In this document: in pieces, positions 7,730 to 17,725 of the stretch
How positions within the stretch are numbered: position 1 is the first letter of the stretch
Layout: each line of letters opens with the position of its first letter
NCBI GenBank assembly: GCA_963804645.1
Contig: CAWDRG010000015.1
Coordinates: 1-64,000, forward strand
DNA: 64,000 nt
Direction of reading: 5' to 3'
DNA from: an uncultured Bacillota bacterium
GTDB taxonomy: Bacteria > Sysuimicrobiota > Sysuimicrobiia > Sysuimicrobiales > Segetimicrobiaceae
Notes under the pieces: generated by a model
What the model saw: only the letters and a program-made list of their open reading frames with translations
Database searches by the model: none
What the model was told of the DNA's origin: nothing
Program-made: the position numbers and the translations under genes

Positions 7730-8506
7730 ATGGCTGGCGAGGCACGAACGCGGACTCCTGGGATGCTCAACAAGGCCAAGACGCTGCAAGGATACCGATT
7801 GCACAGCCTCGACGGGGAAATCGGGACAGTGAAAGACTTCTACTTCGACGATCGGTATTGGACGATTCGCTATCTCGTGGTCGACACGGGGACGTGGCTG
7901 GCGAGCCGGCGGGTGCTGATCTCTCCTCACGCGCTCGGGGCCGTGAGCCGAGATGAGCCCTACATCGCGGTCAATCTGACCAAGGCACAGATTGCGGGCA
8001 GCCCGTCCTGGGATAGTGACAAGCCTGTCTCGCGCCAGTTCGAGGAGGACTATCATGAGTACTATGGGTGGCCGGTGTATTGGAGCGGCCCCGACATGTG
8101 GGGCTCGTATCCCACAGTTGCGCCGGACCCCGAACTCTGGAGAACACCCACCAAGACCGAAGAGGCATGGGATCCCCATTTGCGCAGCACGCAAGCGGTG
8201 AGTGGCTATCACGTCCAGGCGACCGATGGCGAGATCGGCCACGTGGCCGATGTTGTCATCGATGACGGGACGTGGGCGATTCGATATCTCATCGTCGACA
8301 CGCAGAATTGGTGGCTCGGGAAAATGGTCCTGGTGGCACCGCAGTGGATCGAGCGTGTGAGTTGGAGCGAGGCGAAAGTCTTCGTCAATCTCGCTCGAGA
8401 CGCCATCAAACAGTCACCGGAATACACGAACGACACGGTGATCACCCGCGAGTATGAAATCGGACTGCATCGGCATTATGATCGCCTTGGATATTGGGTT
8501 CTGTGA
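7730..8506 (+). CDS. Tandem PRC-barrel domain protein
   Basis: Two repeats of GY.(L/V)...DGEIG.V.D...DD..W.IRYL(V/I)VDT..W; GGGAGG RBS. Confidence 0.88.
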   Translation: MAGEARTRTPGMLNKAKTLQGYRLHSLDGEIGTVKDFYFDDRYWTIRYLVVDTGTWLASRRVLISPHALGAVSRDEPYIAVNLTKAQIAGSPSWDSDKPVSRQFEEDYHEYYGWPVYWSGPDMWGSYPTVAPDPELWRTPTKTEEAWDPHLRSTQAVSGYHVQATDGEIGHVADVVIDDGTWAIRYLIVDTQNWWLGKMVLVAPQWIERVSWSEAKVFVNLARDAIKQSPEYTNDTVITREYEIGLHRHYDRLGYWVL

Positions 8507-8918
8507 ACGGGGGCCGCCCACTCGCATGCCGGGTGAATTGAGCTCGACGGCGGGCTCCTTGCAGGTCTGAGTGACCCTGATCGGGCGGCCACACAAGAGC
8601 CCTCCAGACCAGGAGGATCCTGTTTAAATGCGGATTCCCGTGCTGATACCGGTCAAACCGAGCGTGTTGCGGCGGCGAGACGCGAGCGGTCGTGGATGGT
8701 CCTTTGCGCCACGTTGCACAAAGGTTGAGTTTTGAGAACGTAGGGTGCGGCAGCGGCATCGCTTGTGGGTTGTCGCTGTGGTGAATACGCGGCAGCAACG
8801 AGCTGCAGTTCCCTAGCCCGAGCATGCGGACGGCAGTTTGCAGGAAACATGGACACCTGAAGCCGCCAGCTATTGTTGACCTCGCCGTCTGCTCGTCACA
8901 CTGCGGCGATGATTGCTT

Positions 8919-9203
8919 TCATGCATCGACAACCAGGGTTTTATTTTTGACATCCACACGGCACTTCTTGCCAGTTTCCAATAATCCGGGAGCAACGTGC
9001 AACACATCGAATTTACCCACAGGAGGGTTGCGTCGAGTGCGAAGTGCCCGAATAGCGTGTTCCGCCATTTCACCTTCCCCTGGCTCACGTCCACCGACGA
9101 GCGTCAACACTTTGTGTTGATGGTGAATCTCTCCGGTTTCGGAGTCGTAAACGACACACGCCTTGACCGATTGCACCGGAAGCGTGGAACCTGCACTCAG
9201 CAT
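8919..9203 (-). CDS. Hypothetical protein, 94 aa
   Basis: AAGGAGG RBS upstream; protein-like composition (VVYDSETGEIHH...RVDVKNKTLV). Confidence 0.7.
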   Translation of the reverse strand: MLSAGSTLPVQSVKACVVYDSETGEIHHQHKVLTLVGGREPGEGEMAEHAIRALRTRRNPPVGKFDVLHVAPGLLETGKKCRVDVKNKTLVVDA

Positions 9204-9222
9204 ACCTAATATCGAACCTCCT

Positions 9223-9563
9223 TTAGCTCCACAACGAAACCATCAACAACAGCGTGGCTTGCTGTTCAGCCCCCAAATCGAGCTCGGCTGTGACGCTGGT
9301 CATCAACGGATCATAGGCCATGGGTGGGAGCCAATAAGTCAAATTTGCGATGGAAAAATTGTGATCCTGATCCGGCCCAGCCGGGTACGAGCGGGTAACA
9401 TACTGCGTTATGCCACCGGCGATTAAGCCCCCCCATCAGCTTGCGTCAATGAGCACTGCGCTATGGCCATCGTTGGCGCAAAATTGACCTGGATGCTTGC
9501 GGAGGCTCCATTACTGCCGCTGTACCCCCCGGTCCAATTCCACGCCATATTCTGAACGGGCAT
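9223..9563 (-). pseudogene. Hypothetical protein of about 113 aa, frameshifted in a G7 tract
   Basis: MPVQNMAWNWTGG...QADGG stops just after G7 (9428-9434). One extra G gives GLIAGGITQY...LLLMVSLWS*, ending at the next gene's RBS. Confidence 0.65.
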
Positions 9564-9651
9564 GCGAAGCCTCTCTTCCCGAAAGAGTTAGGCGGGTATT
9601 CTTCCTTTCGCTCCCCATTCCTCTAATCAAGTAATCAAGGATTTCTGCTTA

Positions 9652-9816
9652 ACCGGAGGATTGCGCCGCAGCGAGCTGGTTGCACTCGACGTCGACGACT
9701 ACTCGCCCACAATGGGCGAACTACGGATCCGACGCGGTAAGGGCGCCAAAGACCGCGTGTGCTATACGACGAACGGTACCATTAATTTAAAAGAAGACCG
9801 GTCGCGTCTATTTTAG
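9652..9816 (+). pseudogene. Tyrosine recombinase/integrase fragment
   Basis: Translates TGGLRRSELVALDVDDYSPTMGELRIRRGKGAKDRVCY (catalytic R and K motifs); no start codon and no HxxR/Y half. Confidence 0.8.
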
Positions 9817-10197
9817 CGACAGGCTGCTTTGTTCGGGTTGACTTACCGATTCCAAGAGGTCGGGCCCGTCGTTGGCCGGATTGTTGACCTTACGGCTGAC
9901 CGGCCACAGGTGGAGGATGCCTCGCGCGGCCGGTCGCATCAACGCCATCGGATCTCGCGTGGTCTCGCCCAGCCACGCCGGCCAGTCGGGTTCCTCGAGA
10001 ATGACCGGCATCCGATGGTGGACCCGTGCCATGTCCTCGTTCGCGGCCGTCGTGACGATCGTGAAAGTTCTGACCGCGCAGGCTGCGACCGGATCGTGCC
10101 ACACCTCCCACAGGCCGGCCAGTGCCATGGGCTGGCCGTCCGTTCGAGCCGCGGCGTACGGCTGCTTCTGCTTTTGTCCGGGGAGCGTTCGCCACTC
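9808..10197 (-). pseudogene. SRAP/YedK family gene, C-terminal part (interrupted)
   Basis: EW...KQPY...MALAGLWE...TFTIVTTAAN...HHRMPVIL...VSRKVNNPANDGPDLLE. Confidence 0.92.
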
Positions 10198-10199
10198 AG

Positions 10200-10211
10200 T
10201 TATATGGACAT
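10200..10211. repeat. Left terminal inverted repeat TTATATGGACAT
   Basis: Exact reverse complement of 15978-15989. Confidence 0.9.
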
Positions 10212-10285
10212 GCCCCGCATTCCGGCGGTCGGTCTCCCAAGCCACCTGCTTCGTGAAGTCCTACCTGGTCTTCGTGGACCGACCG

Positions 10286-10324
10286 GCCGTCGGCAGCGTT
10301 GAAGCAAGTGGGTTTGCCGACGGC
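10286..10324 (-). terminator. Hairpin downstream of the arylsulfatase
   Basis: GCCGTCGGCA / TGCCGACGGC 10-bp stem with a large loop and no clear U-tract. Confidence 0.35.
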
Positions 10325-10362
10325 GCTCGCATCATACGAACAGCGAGCCGAAGCCAACTCGA

Positions 10363-12735
10363 TTAGACGAAAAGCGTTTTCTTCATATGCAATTCTTGGA
10401 GAGCCCTCTGGGCCTCCGCACTGAGGTTGGACTTTCCGACCACGACGGTCACCTTGTGAATCTTGCTGGTGAACTTGTTATCGCCCTGTTTGTAGTCGTC
10501 GCTGACACACGTATAGAGGTTCTCGCCCACGTCCGTCGTTTCCGCGCCAAATGCGAACGGCTGAGTGTGCTCGACCCGCCCTGCGGCGACCTCTTTATCG
10601 TTGACGAAGATCACACCGTTACCGCCTGCGCCCAAACCGCCATCGTAAGCGAACTCGAAGCGAAGTGCCACCCGCCCTACCGGCAGGCGAGCGGGGCCGG
10701 CGATCTTGTAAATCTCGCGACCGAGATAGTTCCAGGCAAACCGGGGTGCGCCGTCCTTGACGTAAAGGGCCCAGCCGCCCATCTCCCCGCCTTGGGCGAT
10801 AACCACCCCTTCTGCACCGGCCTGCGGGACTTCGATATCGGCCTTAACCACGAACGAGCGGTTCTTGATGTTGATGAAGCCATTTTCGGGAATTCCCTTC
10901 ATTCCCTCATAGACCGTGATCTCGCTGCGACCTTCCATCAGATCCGGACGCCCCGCCAGAGCGGTGTTGAAGCGTTCCCAAGCGCGGTCGTCAAGCGGGA
11001 GCACGTGGTACTTGACGGCCTCTTCCAGGAAGACTCCCTTCAGCTTCGCGAGTTTGTCGGGATACTTCGCGGCAAGGTCGTGCGCGCAACTAAAATCTTC
11101 CTCTACATTATAAAGCTCCCACTTGTCGTCTTCAAACGTAGCCCGCGGCTTGGGCTCCCACGGCGGGCGGTGCACCGTGGTGGCGAACCAGCCGTCCTGA
11201 TAGATGCCCCGGTTGCCTGCCATCTCGAAGTATTGCAAGGTGTGGCGCGACTTCGCGTCGGGATTATTCAAGGTGTCTAGCACGCTCACGCCCTCGAGGG
11301 GTTTCTGCTGGACGCCATGCACGACGCCCGGCTCGGGCACGCCAGCCGCCTCCAAGACCGTCGGGGCAATGTCAATCATGTGCATCCACTGCGTACGCAG
11401 GCCGCCCTTCGCCGTGATGCCCTTCGGCCAGTGGACCACCATGGACTGGCAGACGCCGCCGTACGAGGCCACCTGGTGGCCCCAACCAAAGGGCGTGGCG
11501 CCGGCGAAAGCCCAGCCATTGTTGTACAAAATATGCGATTTGGGGCCGCCGATCTCGTCGAAGTTCTTTAGCGGAACGTCCAGAGGCTCCGGCAGCCCGT
11601 TGAACACGGACAGCTCATTGAAGGCGCCGTTGAGGCCGCCTTGGAAAACGGAACCATTGTCGCCGGTGATGTAGAAGATTAACGTGTTGTCCATTTCGCC
11701 GAGGTTCTCGATCTCGTCCAGAAACCGCCCGATTTCGTAGTCGGTCACCTCGGCAAAAGCGGCATAGATCTCCATATACCGCGCAAAGATCTTCTTCTCG
11801 TCGGCCGTCAAGTCGTCCCATTCCTGGATTCCCGGCGGCTTGGGCGCCGCATCGGTGCCCGGAGGCACGACGCCCATCTCGATCTGCCTGGCCAAGGTTT
11901 CCTTACGCACTTGGTCCCAGCCCTGATCGAACTTGCCCTTGTAGCGGTCGCGCCACGTCTCGGGCACGTGGAATGGGCCGTGAGTACCAATTGCCGCGTA
12001 GTAGACGAAAAATGGCTTGTTGGGGGCCAGCGAACGCTGCGAGCGCAGCCAGAGGATGGCCTTGTCGGTGATGTCCGTACTCGCGTAGTAATCGGCATCG
12101 GGATGCATATCCACCCTGGTCATGTTGTCGTAAATGACCGGATGAAAAAGGTCGGCCTCGCCGGACATGAAGCCGTAGAACCTCTCAAACCCGCTATGCA
12201 CCGGCCAGCGGTCGAAGGGTCCCACAGCGCTGCCTTCCCACGGTGCCAGCTCGTGACACTTGCCGAACATGGCAGTGTTATAGCCGTTGAGCCGCAAGAT
12301 CTCGGGCAGATTCGTGACGCTGCTGGGGCGCACCGCAGTGTACCCCGGGAAGCCGGTGGCAATTTCCGAGATCACGCCGAAGTTTGCGCTATGGCTATTG
12401 CGACCGGTAAGCAGCGCTACCCGGGCGGGCGAACACAACGGGGGGACTTTGAGATTGTTGTAGCTCAACCCGGTCTTGGCCAGACGGTCCAGCGTCGGCA
12501 TCTGGATCGGCCCTCCGAAGGTCGATACGTCGCCGAAGCCCATGTTGTCGAGAAGGATGACTACCACGTTGGGCGCACCTTTGGGCGCCTTTACCTCGAA
12601 CCGCGGTGGGGCTGTAGCGTTGTGCGCATCAAGCTCAGTGATTGGCGGATACTGAGGCTCTGGGATGGGCAGCACGGTACGGTCCATGGAGGCGGTCGTT
12701 CCGTCACTCCTTTGGGCCTCTGACTGGTTTGTCAT
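10363..12735 (-). CDS. Arylsulfatase (Cys-type, formylglycine-dependent S1 family)
   Basis: PNVVVILLDNMG, CSPARVALLTGR, GYNTAMFGKCH, GDNG, WELYN motifs; no obvious signal peptide. Confidence 0.93.
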   Translation of the reverse strand: MTNQSEAQRSDGTTASMDRTVLPIPEPQYPPITELDAHNATAPPRFEVKAPKGAPNVVVILLDNMGFGDVSTFGGPIQMPTLDRLAKTGLSYNNLKVPPLCSPARVALLTGRNSHSANFGVISEIATGFPGYTAVRPSSVTNLPEILRLNGYNTAMFGKCHELAPWEGSAVGPFDRWPVHSGFERFYGFMSGEADLFHPVIYDNMTRVDMHPDADYYASTDITDKAILWLRSQRSLAPNKPFFVYYAAIGTHGPFHVPETWRDRYKGKFDQGWDQVRKETLARQIEMGVVPPGTDAAPKPPGIQEWDDLTADEKKIFARYMEIYAAFAEVTDYEIGRFLDEIENLGEMDNTLIFYITGDNGSVFQGGLNGAFNELSVFNGLPEPLDVPLKNFDEIGGPKSHILYNNGWAFAGATPFGWGHQVASYGGVCQSMVVHWPKGITAKGGLRTQWMHMIDIAPTVLEAAGVPEPGVVHGVQQKPLEGVSVLDTLNNPDAKSRHTLQYFEMAGNRGIYQDGWFATTVHRPPWEPKPRATFEDDKWELYNVEEDFSCAHDLAAKYPDKLAKLKGVFLEEAVKYHVLPLDDRAWERFNTALAGRPDLMEGRSEITVYEGMKGIPENGFINIKNRSFVVKADIEVPQAGAEGVVIAQGGEMGGWALYVKDGAPRFAWNYLGREIYKIAGPARLPVGRVALRFEFAYDGGLGAGGNGVIFVNDKEVAAGRVEHTQPFAFGAETTDVGENLYTCVSDDYKQGDNKFTSKIHKVTVVVGKSNLSAEAQRALQELHMKKTLFV

Positions 12736-12834
12736 GATCTAGTCCCCTTTCGATGGCTCCGACCGAGATGACTTGTGCGTAACGCAGTTGTTCTCAACTT
12801 AAGTTTATTGGCTGATACCCACTGCGCCTTGATC

Positions 12835-14862
12835 CTATCTCGTGTGGCCTTCGTCGGACGGATACGACTCACCTACAGGCTCCCCCAAATCGGTCAGCAG
12901 ATGTTCGATCCGTCTCACGATGCAAGCGTGTCGTTCGACCTCGCGCGCCCAGCCTTGCGCGCGTGCCTCCTTCACCAAGCCCAGCTCTCGCAACCGCCGC
13001 GCCCGCAGCCGTGGTGCATACTCCGGAGTGGTGACGAACTTGGCGCAGGTCAGATACAGGTCACACTCACACGGTCCTTCCTGCGGCAGCCGCAAGCAAT
13101 GCCCCAGTTCCAGCTCGGTGCGGAAGAAATTTGCCTTGAGCCAGTCGATCGACTCTCGCGGCATTGCACCAACTCGTAGAGTTGCGGCAAGCGGTCCCGC
13201 GAGTTGTGCGCCGGGACCGAGGACCTTTAGGTAATCCTCGCGAATCGTCGCATCCGTCAGGTGGGCGTAGATCAGGGTCATGCCGGTGCTGGTATGTCCC
13301 AGCATCTTCATAATCGTGTGCAGACGTGCGCCACCCTCAGCGAGCTCAGTCCCGACCGTATGTCGGAAGCGATGCGCGGTGATGCGCGGCCGGCCATTGG
13401 GATCCAGCAATCCGGCCTCGGCACAGACGATGGCGAGGGGCGCCTCGAACAGGTAGCCCGACGTCATCTTCTGGCCGCGCCGGACGAACAGACGCGGCGT
13501 CTCCTGCTCGCCCCAATCCCCCCGGAAGCCCCGGGCCCCCGTGTCGAGCGCCTGCAACCCGCGGATCGCGATCGCCGCTTCTTCGTGCAACGGGATCAGC
13601 CGCTCGGTGCCGGTCTTGCCGGCCGGAATGCGCAGCCTTGGTGTGCCATCGGCATAGGCATCAAGACAGTGCAGGTCGAGATTGCAGATCTCGCTCCGGC
13701 GCGCCCCGCTCCAACGGGCAACCAGCAAGGCCGTGCGCTGGTAGGGGCAGGCCAAATCGCGGATTGCTAGCATGAGTCTCTCCAACTCATCAGCCGGGAT
13801 ATAGCGTGGCAAACGCGCGACCCGCTTCGGCAGGTCGCGCGCACCAATCAGAGTGTAAGTCGGCGCATCGTCCCAGCCCCAGGCAGCTGTGTCCTGGAAG
13901 AACACCGACAGCGTCGACAGGCGCGAGATCTTGGTCTCGATCGATACCACTGCGTTGTCCGCATGCGGAGTGGTCCTCAACGTCGCCGCATAAGCCAGTA
14001 CATGGTCGCGCGTGACGTCGCCGAATGTCTCGACTGTCGGGTGAGCCGCGACGACCCAGCTTGCAAAGTGCCGCACGTAGGCATCAAATTTCTGGATGGT
14101 CTTCGGACGGGACTGCTGTGCACGACGCACCACGAGATAGCGCTCCAGCAGCGCAGCCATCCGAGGTGGCGCATGTAACTTCCGCCGCGGGCAGGTTACT
14201 GTCCGCCGCGGGAACGAGACAATGGCATGTCGATGATAAAGTAGGGTCCGCAGCGTAAAGAGCGCCTGCCGATGTTCCGCGAACGCGCGCTGCCAAGCTG
14301 TCTGAGACGCGAAGAACATGAGGCGGTCAGCGTGGTCACCGAATGTGGTCAATGCCTGCTCGAAGTTGGCAAGGGCGGCCTCGCTCGGTAGATGCGCGCG
14401 ACCAGGCTCATTGAGGTGGAGATATTTGACGAGGCGGCGCACGCGCTCTCTGCTAGCGATGGTGCCATAACCGAGTTGTACGGCCTGGGCGGACAGGCTG
14501 TCCACATACGCGTTGACCGGCTCCGGCAGCAACTTTGGCGGCAGCTTGTGAAAATTGATCGCCAGGATCCACGGCCAGTCGAGCCGAAGCCGCTGCTCAA
14601 AAGCCAGGAAGTAGAGGTAGGCGCGACTATGAGCGCAGATATAGGCTCGGCCCGCTCTCGGCGACACTGAACCGACCCGCTCGACGAGCGGGGCCGAGAA
14701 CCAGGTGGAAAGGTTCGGATAGGCGCGGACGAATCTCCGGCGCGCTTTCAGCGCTTGGTCGCCCAGGATGGACGGGCTGACGGAGAGGAACGCCGCATAG
14801 TCGGCTTCCGATGCGTGCTGTAACCGCACTGAGGCGGAAGGCACAGCGAGGTTGGCGCTCAT
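12835..14862 (-). CDS. Large tyrosine recombinase (about 675 aa, TnpB-like)
   Basis: GARRSE, AGKT, TAHRFRHT, LGH, TLIYA; C-terminal Cys cluster; ATGA overlap with the upstream YR. Confidence 0.9.
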   Translation of the reverse strand: MSANLAVPSASVRLQHASEADYAAFLSVSPSILGDQALKARRRFVRAYPNLSTWFSAPLVERVGSVSPRAGRAYICAHSRAYLYFLAFEQRLRLDWPWILAINFHKLPPKLLPEPVNAYVDSLSAQAVQLGYGTIASRERVRRLVKYLHLNEPGRAHLPSEAALANFEQALTTFGDHADRLMFFASQTAWQRAFAEHRQALFTLRTLLYHRHAIVSFPRRTVTCPRRKLHAPPRMAALLERYLVVRRAQQSRPKTIQKFDAYVRHFASWVVAAHPTVETFGDVTRDHVLAYAATLRTTPHADNAVVSIETKISRLSTLSVFFQDTAAWGWDDAPTYTLIGARDLPKRVARLPRYIPADELERLMLAIRDLACPYQRTALLVARWSGARRSEICNLDLHCLDAYADGTPRLRIPAGKTGTERLIPLHEEAAIAIRGLQALDTGARGFRGDWGEQETPRLFVRRGQKMTSGYLFEAPLAIVCAEAGLLDPNGRPRITAHRFRHTVGTELAEGGARLHTIMKMLGHTSTGMTLIYAHLTDATIREDYLKVLGPGAQLAGPLAATLRVGAMPRESIDWLKANFFRTELELGHCLRLPQEGPCECDLYLTCAKFVTTPEYAPRLRARRLRELGLVKEARAQGWAREVERHACIVRRIEHLLTDLGEPVGESYPSDEGHTR

Positions 14863-15932
14863 GATCTCAGGGCACTGAGAGCACGACGGTAGTCCGCCAG
14901 CATCCCAGCATCGGACACCCGGGTGTAGACGCGCGTCGCCTCCAAAGAAGCGTGGCCGAGGCGCTTCTGCAGCGCGAGCTCGCGCATCCCACCCTCCCAT
15001 AGCCGGGTCGCATGTGTGTGGCGTAGCGCGTGCGGCGTGATCCAGCTGAGATCCAGGCCGGCCGTGCGGCGCAGACGGCGAAATAGCTTGACGAATGCGT
15101 CGTATCCGAGCGGCTCACAGCGACGACGACCGTGCCCGCCGACCAGGAACACGTGCTGCGACGGGGCATCTCGTGGACGTTCCGCCGCAACGTAATCGCT
15201 GAGCGCAGCCAGCGCCTCGGGCTCGAGGAGATCAACCATGCGCTCGCTGCGAGACTTGGTCCGGACGCCTCGTGGATGGTCGATTCGGTAGCGGATCACG
15301 ATCCGCCGTCGACCATACTGAATGTCCTCCAAATGCAGGTTCAGGAGCTCGCCCACGCGCAGGCCACCCTGCAGTAGGAACAGCAGCATGGCCCGATCGC
15401 GCAGCCGCTTCGGCGCCATGAGAAGCCGCGCGACCTGCTCTTCGGACAGCGGCCGGGGGATGCGCTGAATACGGCGCAGGCGCATCGACCGTCGGCCAGT
15501 CCGGCGCGTCGCCTGCTGCTGAGGGTAACCCGCGTTCAGCGGATTGCGGACGGCCCCGAGGGCGTGCGTCAGCAGCAAGTGCTCGTAGAAGGTCGACACC
15601 GCAGCCAGCACACGGTTGACAGTTGCCGGCGCGAGGCGCACGGAGACGACGGCCGGGGTCGAGGTACGCCTCCCGCCGGTGACACGTCGCCTGTCCGCGA
15701 GATGGGCGATGAAATCGATCGAATGTGCTATGTTGAATTGTTCGACAGTCAGTCCAGACGCGGAGAGGTATCCAAACAGGAACTTCAGATCATGCAGATA
15801 AGCCTTGACAGTGTGTGGCGAGCAGCCGCGTGCGCAAAGGAACCGAACAAAGCTTGCGATGGCAGGGATTTGCTTCCCCCGCTGATCGACCAGCGCTATC
15901 TCGGTACCGTCTGTCCCTCCAGCCCTGGTCAT
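14859..15932 (-). CDS. Tyrosine recombinase (357 aa, TnpA-like)
   Basis: SPHTVKAY N-domain; GLRVGE, TKS, TPHALRHT, LGH, TRVYT. Confidence 0.93.
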   Translation of the reverse strand: MTRAGGTDGTEIALVDQRGKQIPAIASFVRFLCARGCSPHTVKAYLHDLKFLFGYLSASGLTVEQFNIAHSIDFIAHLADRRRVTGGRRTSTPAVVSVRLAPATVNRVLAAVSTFYEHLLLTHALGAVRNPLNAGYPQQQATRRTGRRSMRLRRIQRIPRPLSEEQVARLLMAPKRLRDRAMLLFLLQGGLRVGELLNLHLEDIQYGRRRIVIRYRIDHPRGVRTKSRSERMVDLLEPEALAALSDYVAAERPRDAPSQHVFLVGGHGRRRCEPLGYDAFVKLFRRLRRTAGLDLSWITPHALRHTHATRLWEGGMRELALQKRLGHASLEATRVYTRVSDAGMLADYRRALSALRS

Positions 15933-15977
15933 TCACATCCCCCCAGCCCCGACAAACGTCAGTCCAAGCCATGGTGG

Positions 15978-15989
15978 ATGTCCATATAA
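15978..15989. repeat. Right terminal inverted repeat ATGTCCATATAA
   Basis: Exact reverse complement of 10200-10211. Confidence 0.9.
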
Positions 15990-15990
15990 A

Positions 15991-16311
15991 CTCGTAAAAG
16001 TTGGACGCCGGGATCAGGCACCGCCGCCTGGCGAATGCATCACGGAAGAGCGACGACGTGATCACGGTCTCGCCCCGAGCATTGATCGGCCGGCGCGTGT
16101 GCACGGGATCCTTGGCCCACCGGGGGAGTAAGCCCCACTGCAGCCGCTCCAGCCGGCGCACTCCGGTCTCCTCGTCGCGCAGGACGACCATTGTATCCTG
16201 GCTGGGGGCGAGGTTCCAGGTGGGCTCGATTCGAGGGTCCGGCTCGTATCCGGCGCGGAACAACTGCGCGACAAGCCCGGGGATGAGGTAGATGCCAAGA
16301 CGCCCGTACAC
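15991..16311 (-). pseudogene. SRAP/YedK family gene, N-terminal part (interrupted; Cys2 reads Tyr)
   Basis: MYGR...WNLAPSQ...WGLLPRW...INARGET...FRDAFARRRCLIPASNFYE. Confidence 0.92.
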
Positions 16312-16364: not shown

Positions 16365-16901
16365 TCACGAAATCCGCGCGCGCGTCCGGTCCGGAAACCG
16401 AATGGACGGGTGCACCACGTCTTCGTCCGCAAACGGACGGAACCACTGGTGAAACTCGAGCCGCGGGTCGACGGGGTGGGACAGCTCGAACAGCGTCCGG
16501 ATGCCGTGGTCGTCGTACGCAACATCCCACAGCGGCCCGAAGTCGGCCTCGACCCCGCGGTCCTCGAGCGTGGCCTGGGCGAAATCCAGCAGCGCATGGA
16601 AGGCGAGGTGTTCCCCCACGCACGCGGGCCGGCACGCCGGGCGGTCCCACAAGTTCGCGCTGACGGACAGGAGACACGTGAGGAAGTTCCGCCCGAACGT
16701 CTCGTCGTACAAGGGACGATAGCGCGCCGGGAGATACTCCGCCATCCAGGTGTCCTCGATCGGGGTGCCACGGCTCAGGTCGTTGACCGCGTCGAAAAAG
16801 TACTGCGTGAGCAGCACGGTCGCGTCACGCAGCGCGGTTACATTGTCTTCGGTCAGCGCGCATTGACTCCAGCATCTTCGGTGCGATCGCCACGGCATCA
16901 C
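16365..16901 (-). CDS. Hypothetical acidic protein upstream of SRAP (start uncertain)
   Basis: Host-like codon usage; YLPARYRPLYD, PACVGEHLA, WFRPF; same strand as SRAP. Confidence 0.7.
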   Translation of the reverse strand: MMPWRSHRRCWSQCALTEDNVTALRDATVLLTQYFFDAVNDLSRGTPIEDTWMAEYLPARYRPLYDETFGRNFLTCLLSVSANLWDRPACRPACVGEHLAFHALLDFAQATLEDRGVEADFGPLWDVAYDDHGIRTLFELSHPVDPRLEFHQWFRPFADEDVVHPSIRFPDRTRARIS

Positions 16902-17368: not shown

Positions 17369-17725
17369 ATGCCAGAGAAGGGCTGCAAGGTGCACGAGGG
17401 GCACACCCACGCTCATAAGTCCGGTTGCGGGCACGTCGCCGTCCAGCACGGCGATCACATCGACTACCTGCACGACGGTCATCTGCATCACGTGCACGGC
17501 GACCATGTCGACTGCCACACGCTTGAGGTGAGCGCGCAACATCCTGCCGACTGCACGCCTGGGCACGAGTGCGGGGGCCACCCCAAGGGACATGTCCACA
17601 GCGCGACGTGCGGGCACCAGCAGGTACCCCACGGGGATCACGTCGATTACCTGGTGGAGGGGCACCTGCACCATCCGCACGGGACCCACTGCGATGATCA
17701 CGGGCGTGTGACCGTTCGCGCCTGA
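17369..17725 (+). CDS. His/Cys-rich duplicated-repeat protein, putative metal binder
   Basis: About 28 His and 7 Cys in 118 aa; two copies of CGH...HGDH(I/V)DYL..GHLHH.HG.H. Confidence 0.85.
   Translation: MPEKGCKVHEGHTHAHKSGCGHVAVQHGDHIDYLHDGHLHHVHGDHVDCHTLEVSAQHPADCTPGHECGGHPKGHVHSATCGHQQVPHGDHVDYLVEGHLHHPHGTHCDDHGRVTVRA

Follow-up and report, generated by a model that had tools for sequence, protein, structure and literature searches.

What has split the SRAP gene of an uncultured Bacillota bacterium directly behind the codon of a catalytic residue, and is the split more than an accident of one genome? The window studied here is a stretch of 64,000 nucleotides (positions 1 to 64,000, forward strand, of contig CAWDRG010000015.1, assembly GCA_963804645.1). 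On its minus strand SRAP is interrupted directly 3' of the Glu codon in FYE|W by an insert of 5,796 bp (10195-15990), which carries three genes, all on the same minus strand as SRAP. We consider it highly probable that a site-specific transposon of the Tn554 superfamily has landed here, one that makes do with a pair of tyrosine recombinases, the short one resembling TnpA and the long one TnpB. The element belongs to a poorly described branch of this superfamily that has no TnpC.

The two halves of SRAP are complementary. The 5' half (15991-16311, minus strand; 107 codons) terminates in ...CLIPASNFYE and matches positions 1-108 of Pfam profile PF02586 (E = 1.4e-27); the 3' half (9808-10194, minus strand; 128 codons) begins with WRTLPGQKQKQPY (WRTLP) and matches positions 111-214 (E = 2.1e-29). 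Neither half contains a stop codon, and rejoining them gives 107 + 128 = 235 aa in frame, as the original prediction had it from the junction ...ASNFYE / WRTLP. An uninterrupted SRAP homologue in a relative of the same genus (locus L092) reads ...ADNFYEWKSLPGQKQ... and is also 235 aa long, the sum of the window halves. In phmmer searches against solved structures, the last N-side residue (E107) paired with HMCES residue 127 in 5ko9_A and 126 in 6oe7_A; the match of YedK to the N-half stopped one residue earlier, at about 103-104. In the available part of PMC9436759, Glu105 of YedK is described as the most important catalytic residue after Cys2. The YedK and HMCES alignments, together with this role of Glu105, place the break immediately 3' of the catalytic Glu codon. 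Insertion at this point silently abolishes the abasic-site repair function. In the 5.3-Mb genome both the element and SRAP occur once, and the insertion has inactivated the only SRAP gene detected. Codon 2 of the window SRAP encodes Tyr (GTG TAC GGG CGT; VYGR), and the intact genes at L092 and L095 carry the catalytic Cys (VCGR). Judged by this replacement of Cys2, the window SRAP would be inactive even when rejoined.

SRAP does not look like a constant gene of this lineage: with the C-half as query it was detected in only 3 of 40 relatives, two of which hold several copies. Just upstream of the window SRAP lies an open reading frame (16365-16901, minus strand) that belongs to no Pfam family. 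Its homologue adjoins SRAP every time (L092, L095, L097, L098), in several copies per genome in two same-genus relatives, with 67-71% DNA identity over about 850-900 bp. SRAP and this reading frame look like a repeated accessory module of the lineage, possibly mobile DNA. Such a nature would fit the preference of the element family, described below, for genes of mobile elements.

The insert is bounded by terminal inverted repeats that are perfect over 11 bp and that a repeat search extends to 17 nt at 88%. In element orientation they read TTATATGGACA at the short-recombinase end (15979-15989, minus strand), a motif found family-wide, and TGTCCATATAA at the cargo end (10200-10210, minus strand). 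At the short-recombinase junction (15990-15993, minus strand) the Glu codon GAG (15993-15991) is followed by a single T (15990). At the opposite junction five bases, CTGAG (10195-10199, minus strand), separate the cargo-end repeat from the Trp codon. In the same orientation the junctions read ...TTT TAC GAG-T-TTATATGGACA... and ...TGTCCATATAA-CTGAG-TGG CGA..., and GAGT (ACTC on the plus strand) is the only sequence common to both; it is likely the crossover region.

The gene content anticipated for the 5.8-kb insert, a 357-aa recombinase coupled to one of 675 aa and a single cargo gene, was borne out by Pfam. The short tyrosine recombinase (14859-15932, minus strand; 357 aa) gave a Phage_integrase match (E = 2.8e-31) and a SAM-like N-terminal domain, and begins 59 bp downstream of the SRAP 5' half. 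Its stop codon overlaps the start codon of the long recombinase (12835-14862, minus strand; 675 aa; Phage_integrase, E = 1.8e-23) as ATGA. The cargo gene (10363-12735, minus strand) encodes a sulfatase of 790 aa (Pfam Sulfatase, E = 5.1e-52) with the Cys-type motif C-x-P-x-R as CSPAR (by eye from the translation); all NCBIfam arylsulfatase matches to it were below their cut-offs. It lies 100 bp beyond the long recombinase and before the far repeat, which is the cargo position of other members of the family.

Both recombinases have their counterparts in Tn558. By BLASTP the short recombinase is 28% identical to Tn558 TnpA over its full length (E = 5e-45), and the long one is 30% identical to Tn558 TnpB over residues 310-661 (E = 3e-40), including a C-terminal Cys-rich motif; the first ~300 residues of the long recombinase have no counterpart in Tn558 TnpB. 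NCBIfam returned only Xer-like matches for the short recombinase, all far below cut-offs, and no equivalog. Both reading frames are intact. The long recombinase is laid out as a helical N-terminal region (1-228), core-binding and catalytic domains (~233-548) and a motif of four Cys near the C-terminus (589-606); these four Cys are shared without exception by all 134 family sequences compared. R388, K416, H497, R500, H523 and Y532 fall in invariant alignment columns within the located motifs, and we read them as the putative catalytic set usual for this class; the corresponding motifs of the short recombinase were identified by eye in its translation. An AlphaFold model of the long recombinase (predicted local distance difference test score, pLDDT, 78.6) matched XerA, IntI, XerH, lambda Int, Tn1549 Int and Cre over the core-binding and catalytic domains. 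Modelled alone, the N-terminal 228 residues (pLDDT 89.3) are all-helical. In VIA-align model comparisons their residues ~112-225 showed weak similarity to integrase core-binding domains (XerA Z 6.6, Brujita Int 6.5, IntI 6.0, XerD 5.7), in a range of matches (Z 4.9-6.6) that lies below the trusted level for helical folds and gives a hint only. The long recombinase may thus have a second, N-terminal core-binding domain.

Relatives of the long recombinase are numerous, 517 being found at E <= 1e-10 among 8,000 candidates scored. We examined 162 loci: the window, the plasmid locus L008, 80 loci from species-representative genomes (the best of 342 hits) and 80 from metagenomes (the best of at least 354). 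The genome and plasmid set therefore holds 81 loci (L008 included) and the metagenome set 80. The short recombinase gene precedes the long one wherever upstream DNA was available in these loci. The family repeat, TTAT[ACG]T[GA]GACA or more broadly the motif TTA[CT]N[CT][AG]GACA, was detected no more than 260 bp upstream of the short gene in 53 of 58 genome and plasmid loci and in 32 of 43 metagenome loci, and its complement downstream of the long gene in 49 of 68 and 59 of 66, respectively; part of the misses are one-base variants. Element ends were placed by this motif rule, in which only the 11 bp are conserved. Both could be placed in 82 elements of 3,267-11,194 bp (median 3,512 bp). Fifty-one of the 82 are shorter than 3.7 kb and so have room for two recombinases only, and many of the small ones fill entire contigs of ~3.4 kb. 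The motif is also present on pROB01 of Rhodococcus opacus, whose long recombinase is 38% identical. It is absent at the ends of Tn558 (L007; up to 2 mismatches to TTATATGGACA allowed) and at the recombinase pair of pREL1 (L102).

Insertion into SRAP is a recurrent event in this family. Twenty of the 162 loci, the window counted, lie inside SRAP genes at the same codon boundary, 17 as judged by Pfam and three on weaker evidence. Besides the window, one flank or both were recognised by Pfam as SRAP in 9 of the 81 loci from genomes and plasmids (L008, L009, L010, L011, L013, L014, L016, L046, L051) and in 7 of the 80 from metagenomes (L105, L107, L108, L109, L111, L132, L147). The weaker cases are L015, with the N-side peptide ALILSDGFYE and no Pfam match; L106, with a tblastn match to SRAP residues 76-107; and L104, the closest relative (76% identical), which was assigned from junction DNA and peptide only. 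N-side flanks end in [FY][YF]E in 14 of 15 cases, and a ..GA(G/A)-T-TTAT.. junction was found in the same proportion; L107, which ends in IYK, is the exception to both. All 14 C-side flanks start with an aromatic residue: W (10), F (3) or Y (1). CTGAG stands at 9 of the 14 C-side junctions, the window included, with CAGAG, ACGAG and CCCTG as variants. The interrupted SRAP genes are ~35-50% identical to that of the window. Their hosts include Bacillota, Acidobacteriota, Methylomirabilota, Alpha- and Gammaproteobacteria, and among them are Brevibacillus, Pyrinomonadaceae, Ca. Methylomirabilis, Methylomonas, Methylocucumis, Mesorhizobium (M. norvegicum in L014), Shinella (L008, L015) and Microvirga. 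Since the same break point and the same repeats recur in 19 further loci from other organisms, the window insertion is not due to chance.

The phylogeny of the long recombinase agrees with these assignments. In a tree of 77 rows (IQ-TREE, quick mode), one clade of 10 holds nine SRAP rows plus L012, a row without flanks; its Shimodaira-Hasegawa-like approximate likelihood ratio test (SH-aLRT) support is 99. The larger FastTree phylogeny of 135 rows, which includes metagenome rows, unites all 14 rows labelled SRAP in a single clade of 16 with support 100; the other two have no flanks, and no other target occurs inside the clade. Six SRAP loci are omitted from the 135-row tree, because the best alignment obtained for them contained a stop or fell short of the required length, 500 aa for the genome set and otherwise 450 aa. 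The proposal that the element uses SRAP as a conserved target is thus supported both by the shared codon boundary in 20 of 162 loci and by the common clade of all 14 labelled rows.

In 17 of the 20 SRAP insertions the recombinases point in the direction of SRAP. Two elements (L013 and L111) are inverted, both with spacer CCCTG, and L016 is rearranged. In this last locus (Brevibacillus porteri) the long recombinase begins at residue 144 and abuts SRAP residue 61; the normal N-side junction is found on the opposite strand at a distance of 2.8 kb. In every member that has cargo, it is placed between the long recombinase and the far repeat, and what it consists of varies by member: a sulfatase in the window; arsenic-resistance genes and transporters in L008; a DUF2442 protein with a helix-turn-helix in L009 and L010; molybdenum dehydrogenase subunits, a PAS histidine kinase and response regulators in L014; a C39-type peptidase in L107; a GntR regulator, an ABC transporter, an aminotransferase and a CLC channel in L108; and a TPR protein in L111. 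No cargo is carried by L109 (3,268 bp) and L132 (3,306 bp). SRAP-inserted elements therefore range from cargo-free members of 3.27 kb to 11.2 kb with ~8 kb of genes.

Sister clades possess the same terminal repeats and machinery, each inserted at its own fixed point in other genes. The DDE domain of Tn3 transposases is the most frequent of these targets (32 loci, among them L022, L028, L030, L044, L045, L047, L112, L160 and L182), and 29 of the 32 have a flank that ends or begins at DDE_Tnp_Tn3 profile position 179-182; from our reading of the flanks, the insertion point appears to lie beside a D-T-H-G motif. DUF6915 genes are occupied in 23 loci, 22 of them at profile position 28/29, and the N-terminal DUF4158 of Tn3 transposases in two. 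Five elements (L122, L130, L131, L137, L139) sit in IS605 OrfB/TnpB genes between the helix-turn-helix and OrfB domains, and one more in a gene with a Cas12f-like TNB domain. In five loci a group II intron reverse transcriptase is split: four at the RVT_N/RVT_1 junction (L124, L129, L164, L175), which one or both flanks reach in each case, and L152 inside RVT_1. The remaining targets are rve or IS240 transposases (four loci: L157, L159, L176, L178), ArdC-N/M78 proteins (five), C5 DNA methylases (five), and a Mu-transposase C-terminal domain, an AAA_22 protein and a MIP channel (one each). For 22 of the 81 loci from genomes and plasmids, and for 36 of the 80 from metagenomes, flanks gave no match or were absent.

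On the tree, loci with the same target label group strongly together. ArdC forms one clade, C5 methylases require 2 changes and DUF6915 5 to 6, and the Tn3 label occurs in several clades. The proposal of SRAP as a conserved target holds within the SRAP clade, where other targets are lacking; it does not extend to the sister clades, which hit other genes, each at a fixed position. The insertions in genes of the RNA-guided nuclease TnpB, of group II intron reverse transcriptases and of DDE integrases are mobile elements nested in other mobile elements. A cargo-free member of 3,304 bp was observed on a Leptospira interrogans contig (L040, 9398-12701), where it splits a DUF6915 gene at profile 28/29; the same point is occupied by Roseobacter-group and Paracoccaceae copies, many of them on plasmids. 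In Ktedonobacter racemifer (L018) both flanks match the same part of the Tn3 DDE domain (140-338 and 142-337) on opposite strands, complementary halves being usual. The L018 arrangement suggests a rearrangement or recombination between two occupied copies.

From the junctions of the window and its relatives we infer the following mechanism of movement. The element would excise as a circle in which the joined ends form an 11-bp arm, a 6-bp spacer CTGAGT and a second 11-bp arm, the spacer being made up of the cargo-end CTGAG and the T of the other end. Such a circle junction would have the classical layout of a tyrosine-recombinase core site. The Xer site dif is likewise 11-6-11. Both recombinases would act jointly on the circle core site and on the SRAP sequence TTYTAYGAG|TGG, with strand exchange within 6 bp around GAGT and without target duplication. 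The SRAP site would provide (A/T)(C/T)GAGT at the matching position, and exchange within the 6 bp would leave ACGAGT, the target type, at the recombinase end and CTGAGT, the element type, at the cargo end. Excision would restore the SRAP site TTYTAYGAGTGG. A reciprocal arrangement is found in L107, with target-like ACGAG at the cargo end and foreign AAAG at the recombinase end; this outcome, at a single locus, fits a heteroduplex across the 6-bp overlap. Landing on the codons of catalytic residues would keep the target constant across phyla.

How the target is recognised is a separate matter from how the ends are. By eye, the SRAP target beyond GAGT is not similar to the terminal repeats, so that reading it would need a specificity of its own. 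GTCCA is common to the window target and the repeat, but it was dismissed as a coincidence, as it is absent from L010. Between the SRAP clade and the other clades, identity of the long recombinase is 0.53-0.60 in the catalytic domain and 0.63-0.67 in the C-terminal tail; it is 0.26-0.42 in the core-binding domain and 0.16-0.26 in residues 111-225. Because they diverge most between clades with different targets, the N-terminal and core-binding regions are the best candidate for target choice. In the proposed mechanism this fast-evolving region would read the target, and the repeats would be read by parts conserved in the family.

Some evidence on the state of the site was found in environmental DNA. 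Six peat-metagenome runs, which come from two studies, contain 59-80% of the words sampled from the stretch. One contig, X1, from one of the four peat runs examined for joints, joins 10198 to 15995, skipping exactly 5,796 bp, and reads TTTTATGAGTGG. It represents an uninterrupted SRAP allele with TAT for Tyr (TAC in the window), and the element is present in the same metagenome. An empty SRAP site thus exists in the peat community. Other joints from the four runs were disregarded, their short sides being 21-35 nt at 90% likeness.

Several observations weigh against an active two-recombinase transposon of the kind described. Contig X1 has a depth of 2 and a shorter side of 57 nt, and its TAT in place of TAC marks it as another allele, so that it is no proof of excision. 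No circle junction was found among the joints in the four peat runs, no movement was observed, and the element is single-copy in its genome. According to the available text of PMC10214605, the far-end 6 bp of Tn554 and of SEs, integrative elements that circularize with a strand bias, are copied from the flank of the previous donor; the CTGAG of the present family is, unlike under that rule, constant among divergent members (9 of 14 C-side junctions). TnpC has been reported to be required or stimulatory in Tn554 (PMC3414803 and PMC10214605, in the parts available), and its absence may mean that an additional host or element factor is needed. As to target reading, the more rapid divergence of the N-terminal region is on its own no demonstration of it, the core-binding-like fold of that region scores below the level trusted for helical matches, and Foldseek with the N-terminal 228 residues gave no match at E <= 0.001.

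Could the insert be an immobile relic of a single past insertion, whose recombinases no longer move it or serve another purpose such as dimer resolution? The single genomic copy and the lack of a circle junction in the four peat runs would suit this explanation. So would the C2Y change, with which SRAP has begun to decay, and the surrounding 7.5-17.5 kb of lower G+C, which contain an integrase remnant and resemble an old island. However, neither recombinase frame is broken, the long recombinase has kept its conserved motifs, the 11-bp repeats are perfect and both SRAP halves are free of stop codons. Close relatives reside in SRAP genes of other phyla, which argues that the lineage has been mobile recently on an evolutionary scale. 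We regard a relic as improbable.

Excision by crossover at GAGT would yield an in-frame SRAP of 235 aa, and this raises the question of a regulated intervening element that leaves precisely under DNA damage and rebuilds SRAP, as some prophage-like elements do in other genes. The orientation in 17 of 20 SRAP insertions, with the recombinases 59 bp from the 5' half in the window, would allow the SRAP promoter to read them, and the uninterrupted allele occurs in the same peat community. Yet the rebuilt window SRAP would be dead, with Tyr in place of the catalytic Cys2 (PMC9436759, available part). The cargo is variable and unrelated to repair, three of the 20 insertions depart from the SRAP direction (L013 and L111 inverted, L016 rearranged), sister clades use the same machinery on transposase genes, and SRAP occurs in only 3 of the 40 relatives (C-half query). 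Regulated excision is accordingly a very improbable role for the insert. An assembly artefact or chance juxtaposition, for which one could point to a metagenome-assembled genome in 22 contigs with 4% contamination, has a negligible probability given the same architecture and junctions in 19 independent records, isolate genomes and a finished plasmid among them, and independent contigs from four runs that cover the element, one of which (X1 record 7) crosses the junction at 15990 without mismatch.

A site-specific Tn554-type transposon is thus the explanation that we prefer for the window insert, and it has consequences beyond it. Transposons of this type are extended beyond staphylococci, enterococci and Actinobacteria to at least Bacillota, Acidobacteriota, Methylomirabilota, Alpha- and Gammaproteobacteria, and TnpC is not a universal part of their machinery. 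The branch gains a recognisable end signature that can be used in annotation pipelines; at present both genes are labelled just 'integrase'. We are inclined, if only slightly, toward a wider picture: a large, essentially undescribed family of compact two-recombinase transposons with the shared end TTATNTGGACA, spread over many phyla, whose clades have repeatedly been retargeted to codon-precise points, target choice being reprogrammed by the N-terminal region of the long recombinase. Such a family would be a hyper-parasite of transposons, introns and plasmids, as most of its targets are genes of other mobile elements or plasmids. If the wider pattern is true, it provides dozens of naturally occurring recombinase pairs that have identical ends but different, very precise targets, a good system for studying how tyrosine recombinases gain new DNA specificity, and a view of mobile elements specialised in colonising other mobile elements.

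The surroundings of the insert have a character of their own. Between 7.5 and 17.5 kb, G+C is 0.54-0.66, compared with ~0.68-0.74 on the flanks, so that SRAP and its insert lie inside an island of distinct composition. A 74-codon open stretch (9592-9816, plus strand) matches Phage_integrase profile positions 25-72 (E = 1e-5, below cut-off); from its sequence it looks like a remnant of a third, unrelated integrase, abutting the 3' end of SRAP. No recognisable gene was found at 8506-9590. On the other side, a 118-aa His-rich protein (17369-17725, plus strand; repeated HxxH, GDH, HLHH), with only a weak DUF3659 match, may bind metal.

Among known systems, the Tn554 family of Staphylococcus and Enterococcus is close in organisation. 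Its members also have a short tyrosine recombinase gene next to a long one, with order and direction as in the window element and with homology at 28% and 30% identity, and they insert site-specifically inside a conserved gene, apparently without a long target duplication. Tn558, which in L007 (a Staphylococcus saprophyticus plasmid) is arranged as tnpA-tnpB-tnpC-fexA and splits a JAB/RadC gene, shares the C-terminal Cys-rich motif of the long recombinase and the position of cargo downstream of the recombinases. Unlike Tn558, the window family has perfect 11-bp terminal repeats (TTATNTGGACA), and the first ~300 residues of the window long recombinase are unrelated to Tn558 TnpB. In contrast to the Tn554 family, its hosts span many phyla. 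The window element contains no homologue of TnpC (DUF6262): with Tn558 TnpC, the best tblastn match in the window slice (E = 1.8) was outside the element, and a very divergent small protein could escape such a search. The sole significant TnpC match in the searched loci (L142, 3591-3953, minus strand; E = 8e-19, 36% identical to Tn558 TnpC) lies outside the element of that locus; a classical Tn554-like element may adjoin a family member in that contig. Nor does the insertion occupy att554 in radC, the flanks being the PF02586 halves of SRAP. The window element thus departs from the Tn554 family in three defining features: tnpC, the radC target and the ends. As to the ends, the premise of the original prediction that Tn554 lacks terminal inverted repeats is disputed, since PMC10214605, in its available text, describes Tn554 termini as forming imperfect inverted repeats. 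The predicted class itself, with two recombinases, no tnpC and bounding repeats, is supported by the 28-30% identity to the Tn558 pair, the failure to find TnpC and the family-wide repeats.

Other recombinase elements are more distant. SEs and GInts need four genes, including a non-catalytic protein of recombinase fold (Tfp/GinC) and an auxiliary coiled-coil protein (PMC10214605, available part). Unlike these, the window insert holds two catalytic recombinases and a sulfatase and neither of the extra genes, and its 3.3-kb relatives fit two recombinases only. The name 'Srap' in SEs was considered as a link to SRAP and rejected; in the same source it stands for 'SE-associated recombination auxiliary protein', is unrelated and shares only the acronym. 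Bipartite module (BIM) elements were also set aside, as they have one recombinase and an SMC-domain protein, not two recombinases. RIT elements have been described as carrying three recombinases of 315-410 aa (ritA, ritB, ritC) and 34-bp repeats (PMC10214605, available part). They resemble the window element in being compact, bounded by inverted repeats and, as mobility genes, restricted to tyrosine recombinases; RitA has been reported to have two core-binding domains (PMC8138268, available part), a feature that the window long recombinase may share according to its model. They differ from the insert, which has two recombinases, one of 675 aa, and 11-bp repeats. Smyshlyaev et al. (2021) defined a TnpA subgroup of simple recombinases, and elements of the present kind are not treated in the available part of that work (PMC8138268). 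In a literature search whose coverage largely left out subscription journals and included no supplements, we found no paper naming SRAP, yedK or DUF159 as an integration target, and no description of the end motif or of the other targets (two-recombinase elements in Tn3 transposase genes, DUF6915/DUF6262).

TnpC-less Tn554-like pairs of one normal and one abnormally long recombinase have been listed from plasmids and chromosomes of Actinobacteria, and mobility was proposed for them (Van Houdt et al. 2012, Mob DNA 3:6, PMC3414803); the available text on these Famint36/41 pairs gives no ends, targets or target specificity. Their architecture, as far as that text describes it, is that of the window element: a short and an abnormally long recombinase, adjacent, with no TnpC. 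On pREL1 and pBD2, two of the plasmids listed there alongside pSCP1 and others, our best long-recombinase matches are 25.6% and 27.5% identical. The pREL1 pair (L102) has a very long branch in the tree and is without the repeat motif; since no TnpC gene adjoins it, we infer that it is the Famint36/41 couple. The predicted distinctness of the window class holds with a qualification: its two-gene, TnpC-less plan had already been listed for actinobacterial pairs (PMC3414803, available part), and its terminal repeats set it apart from both Tn558 and pREL1.

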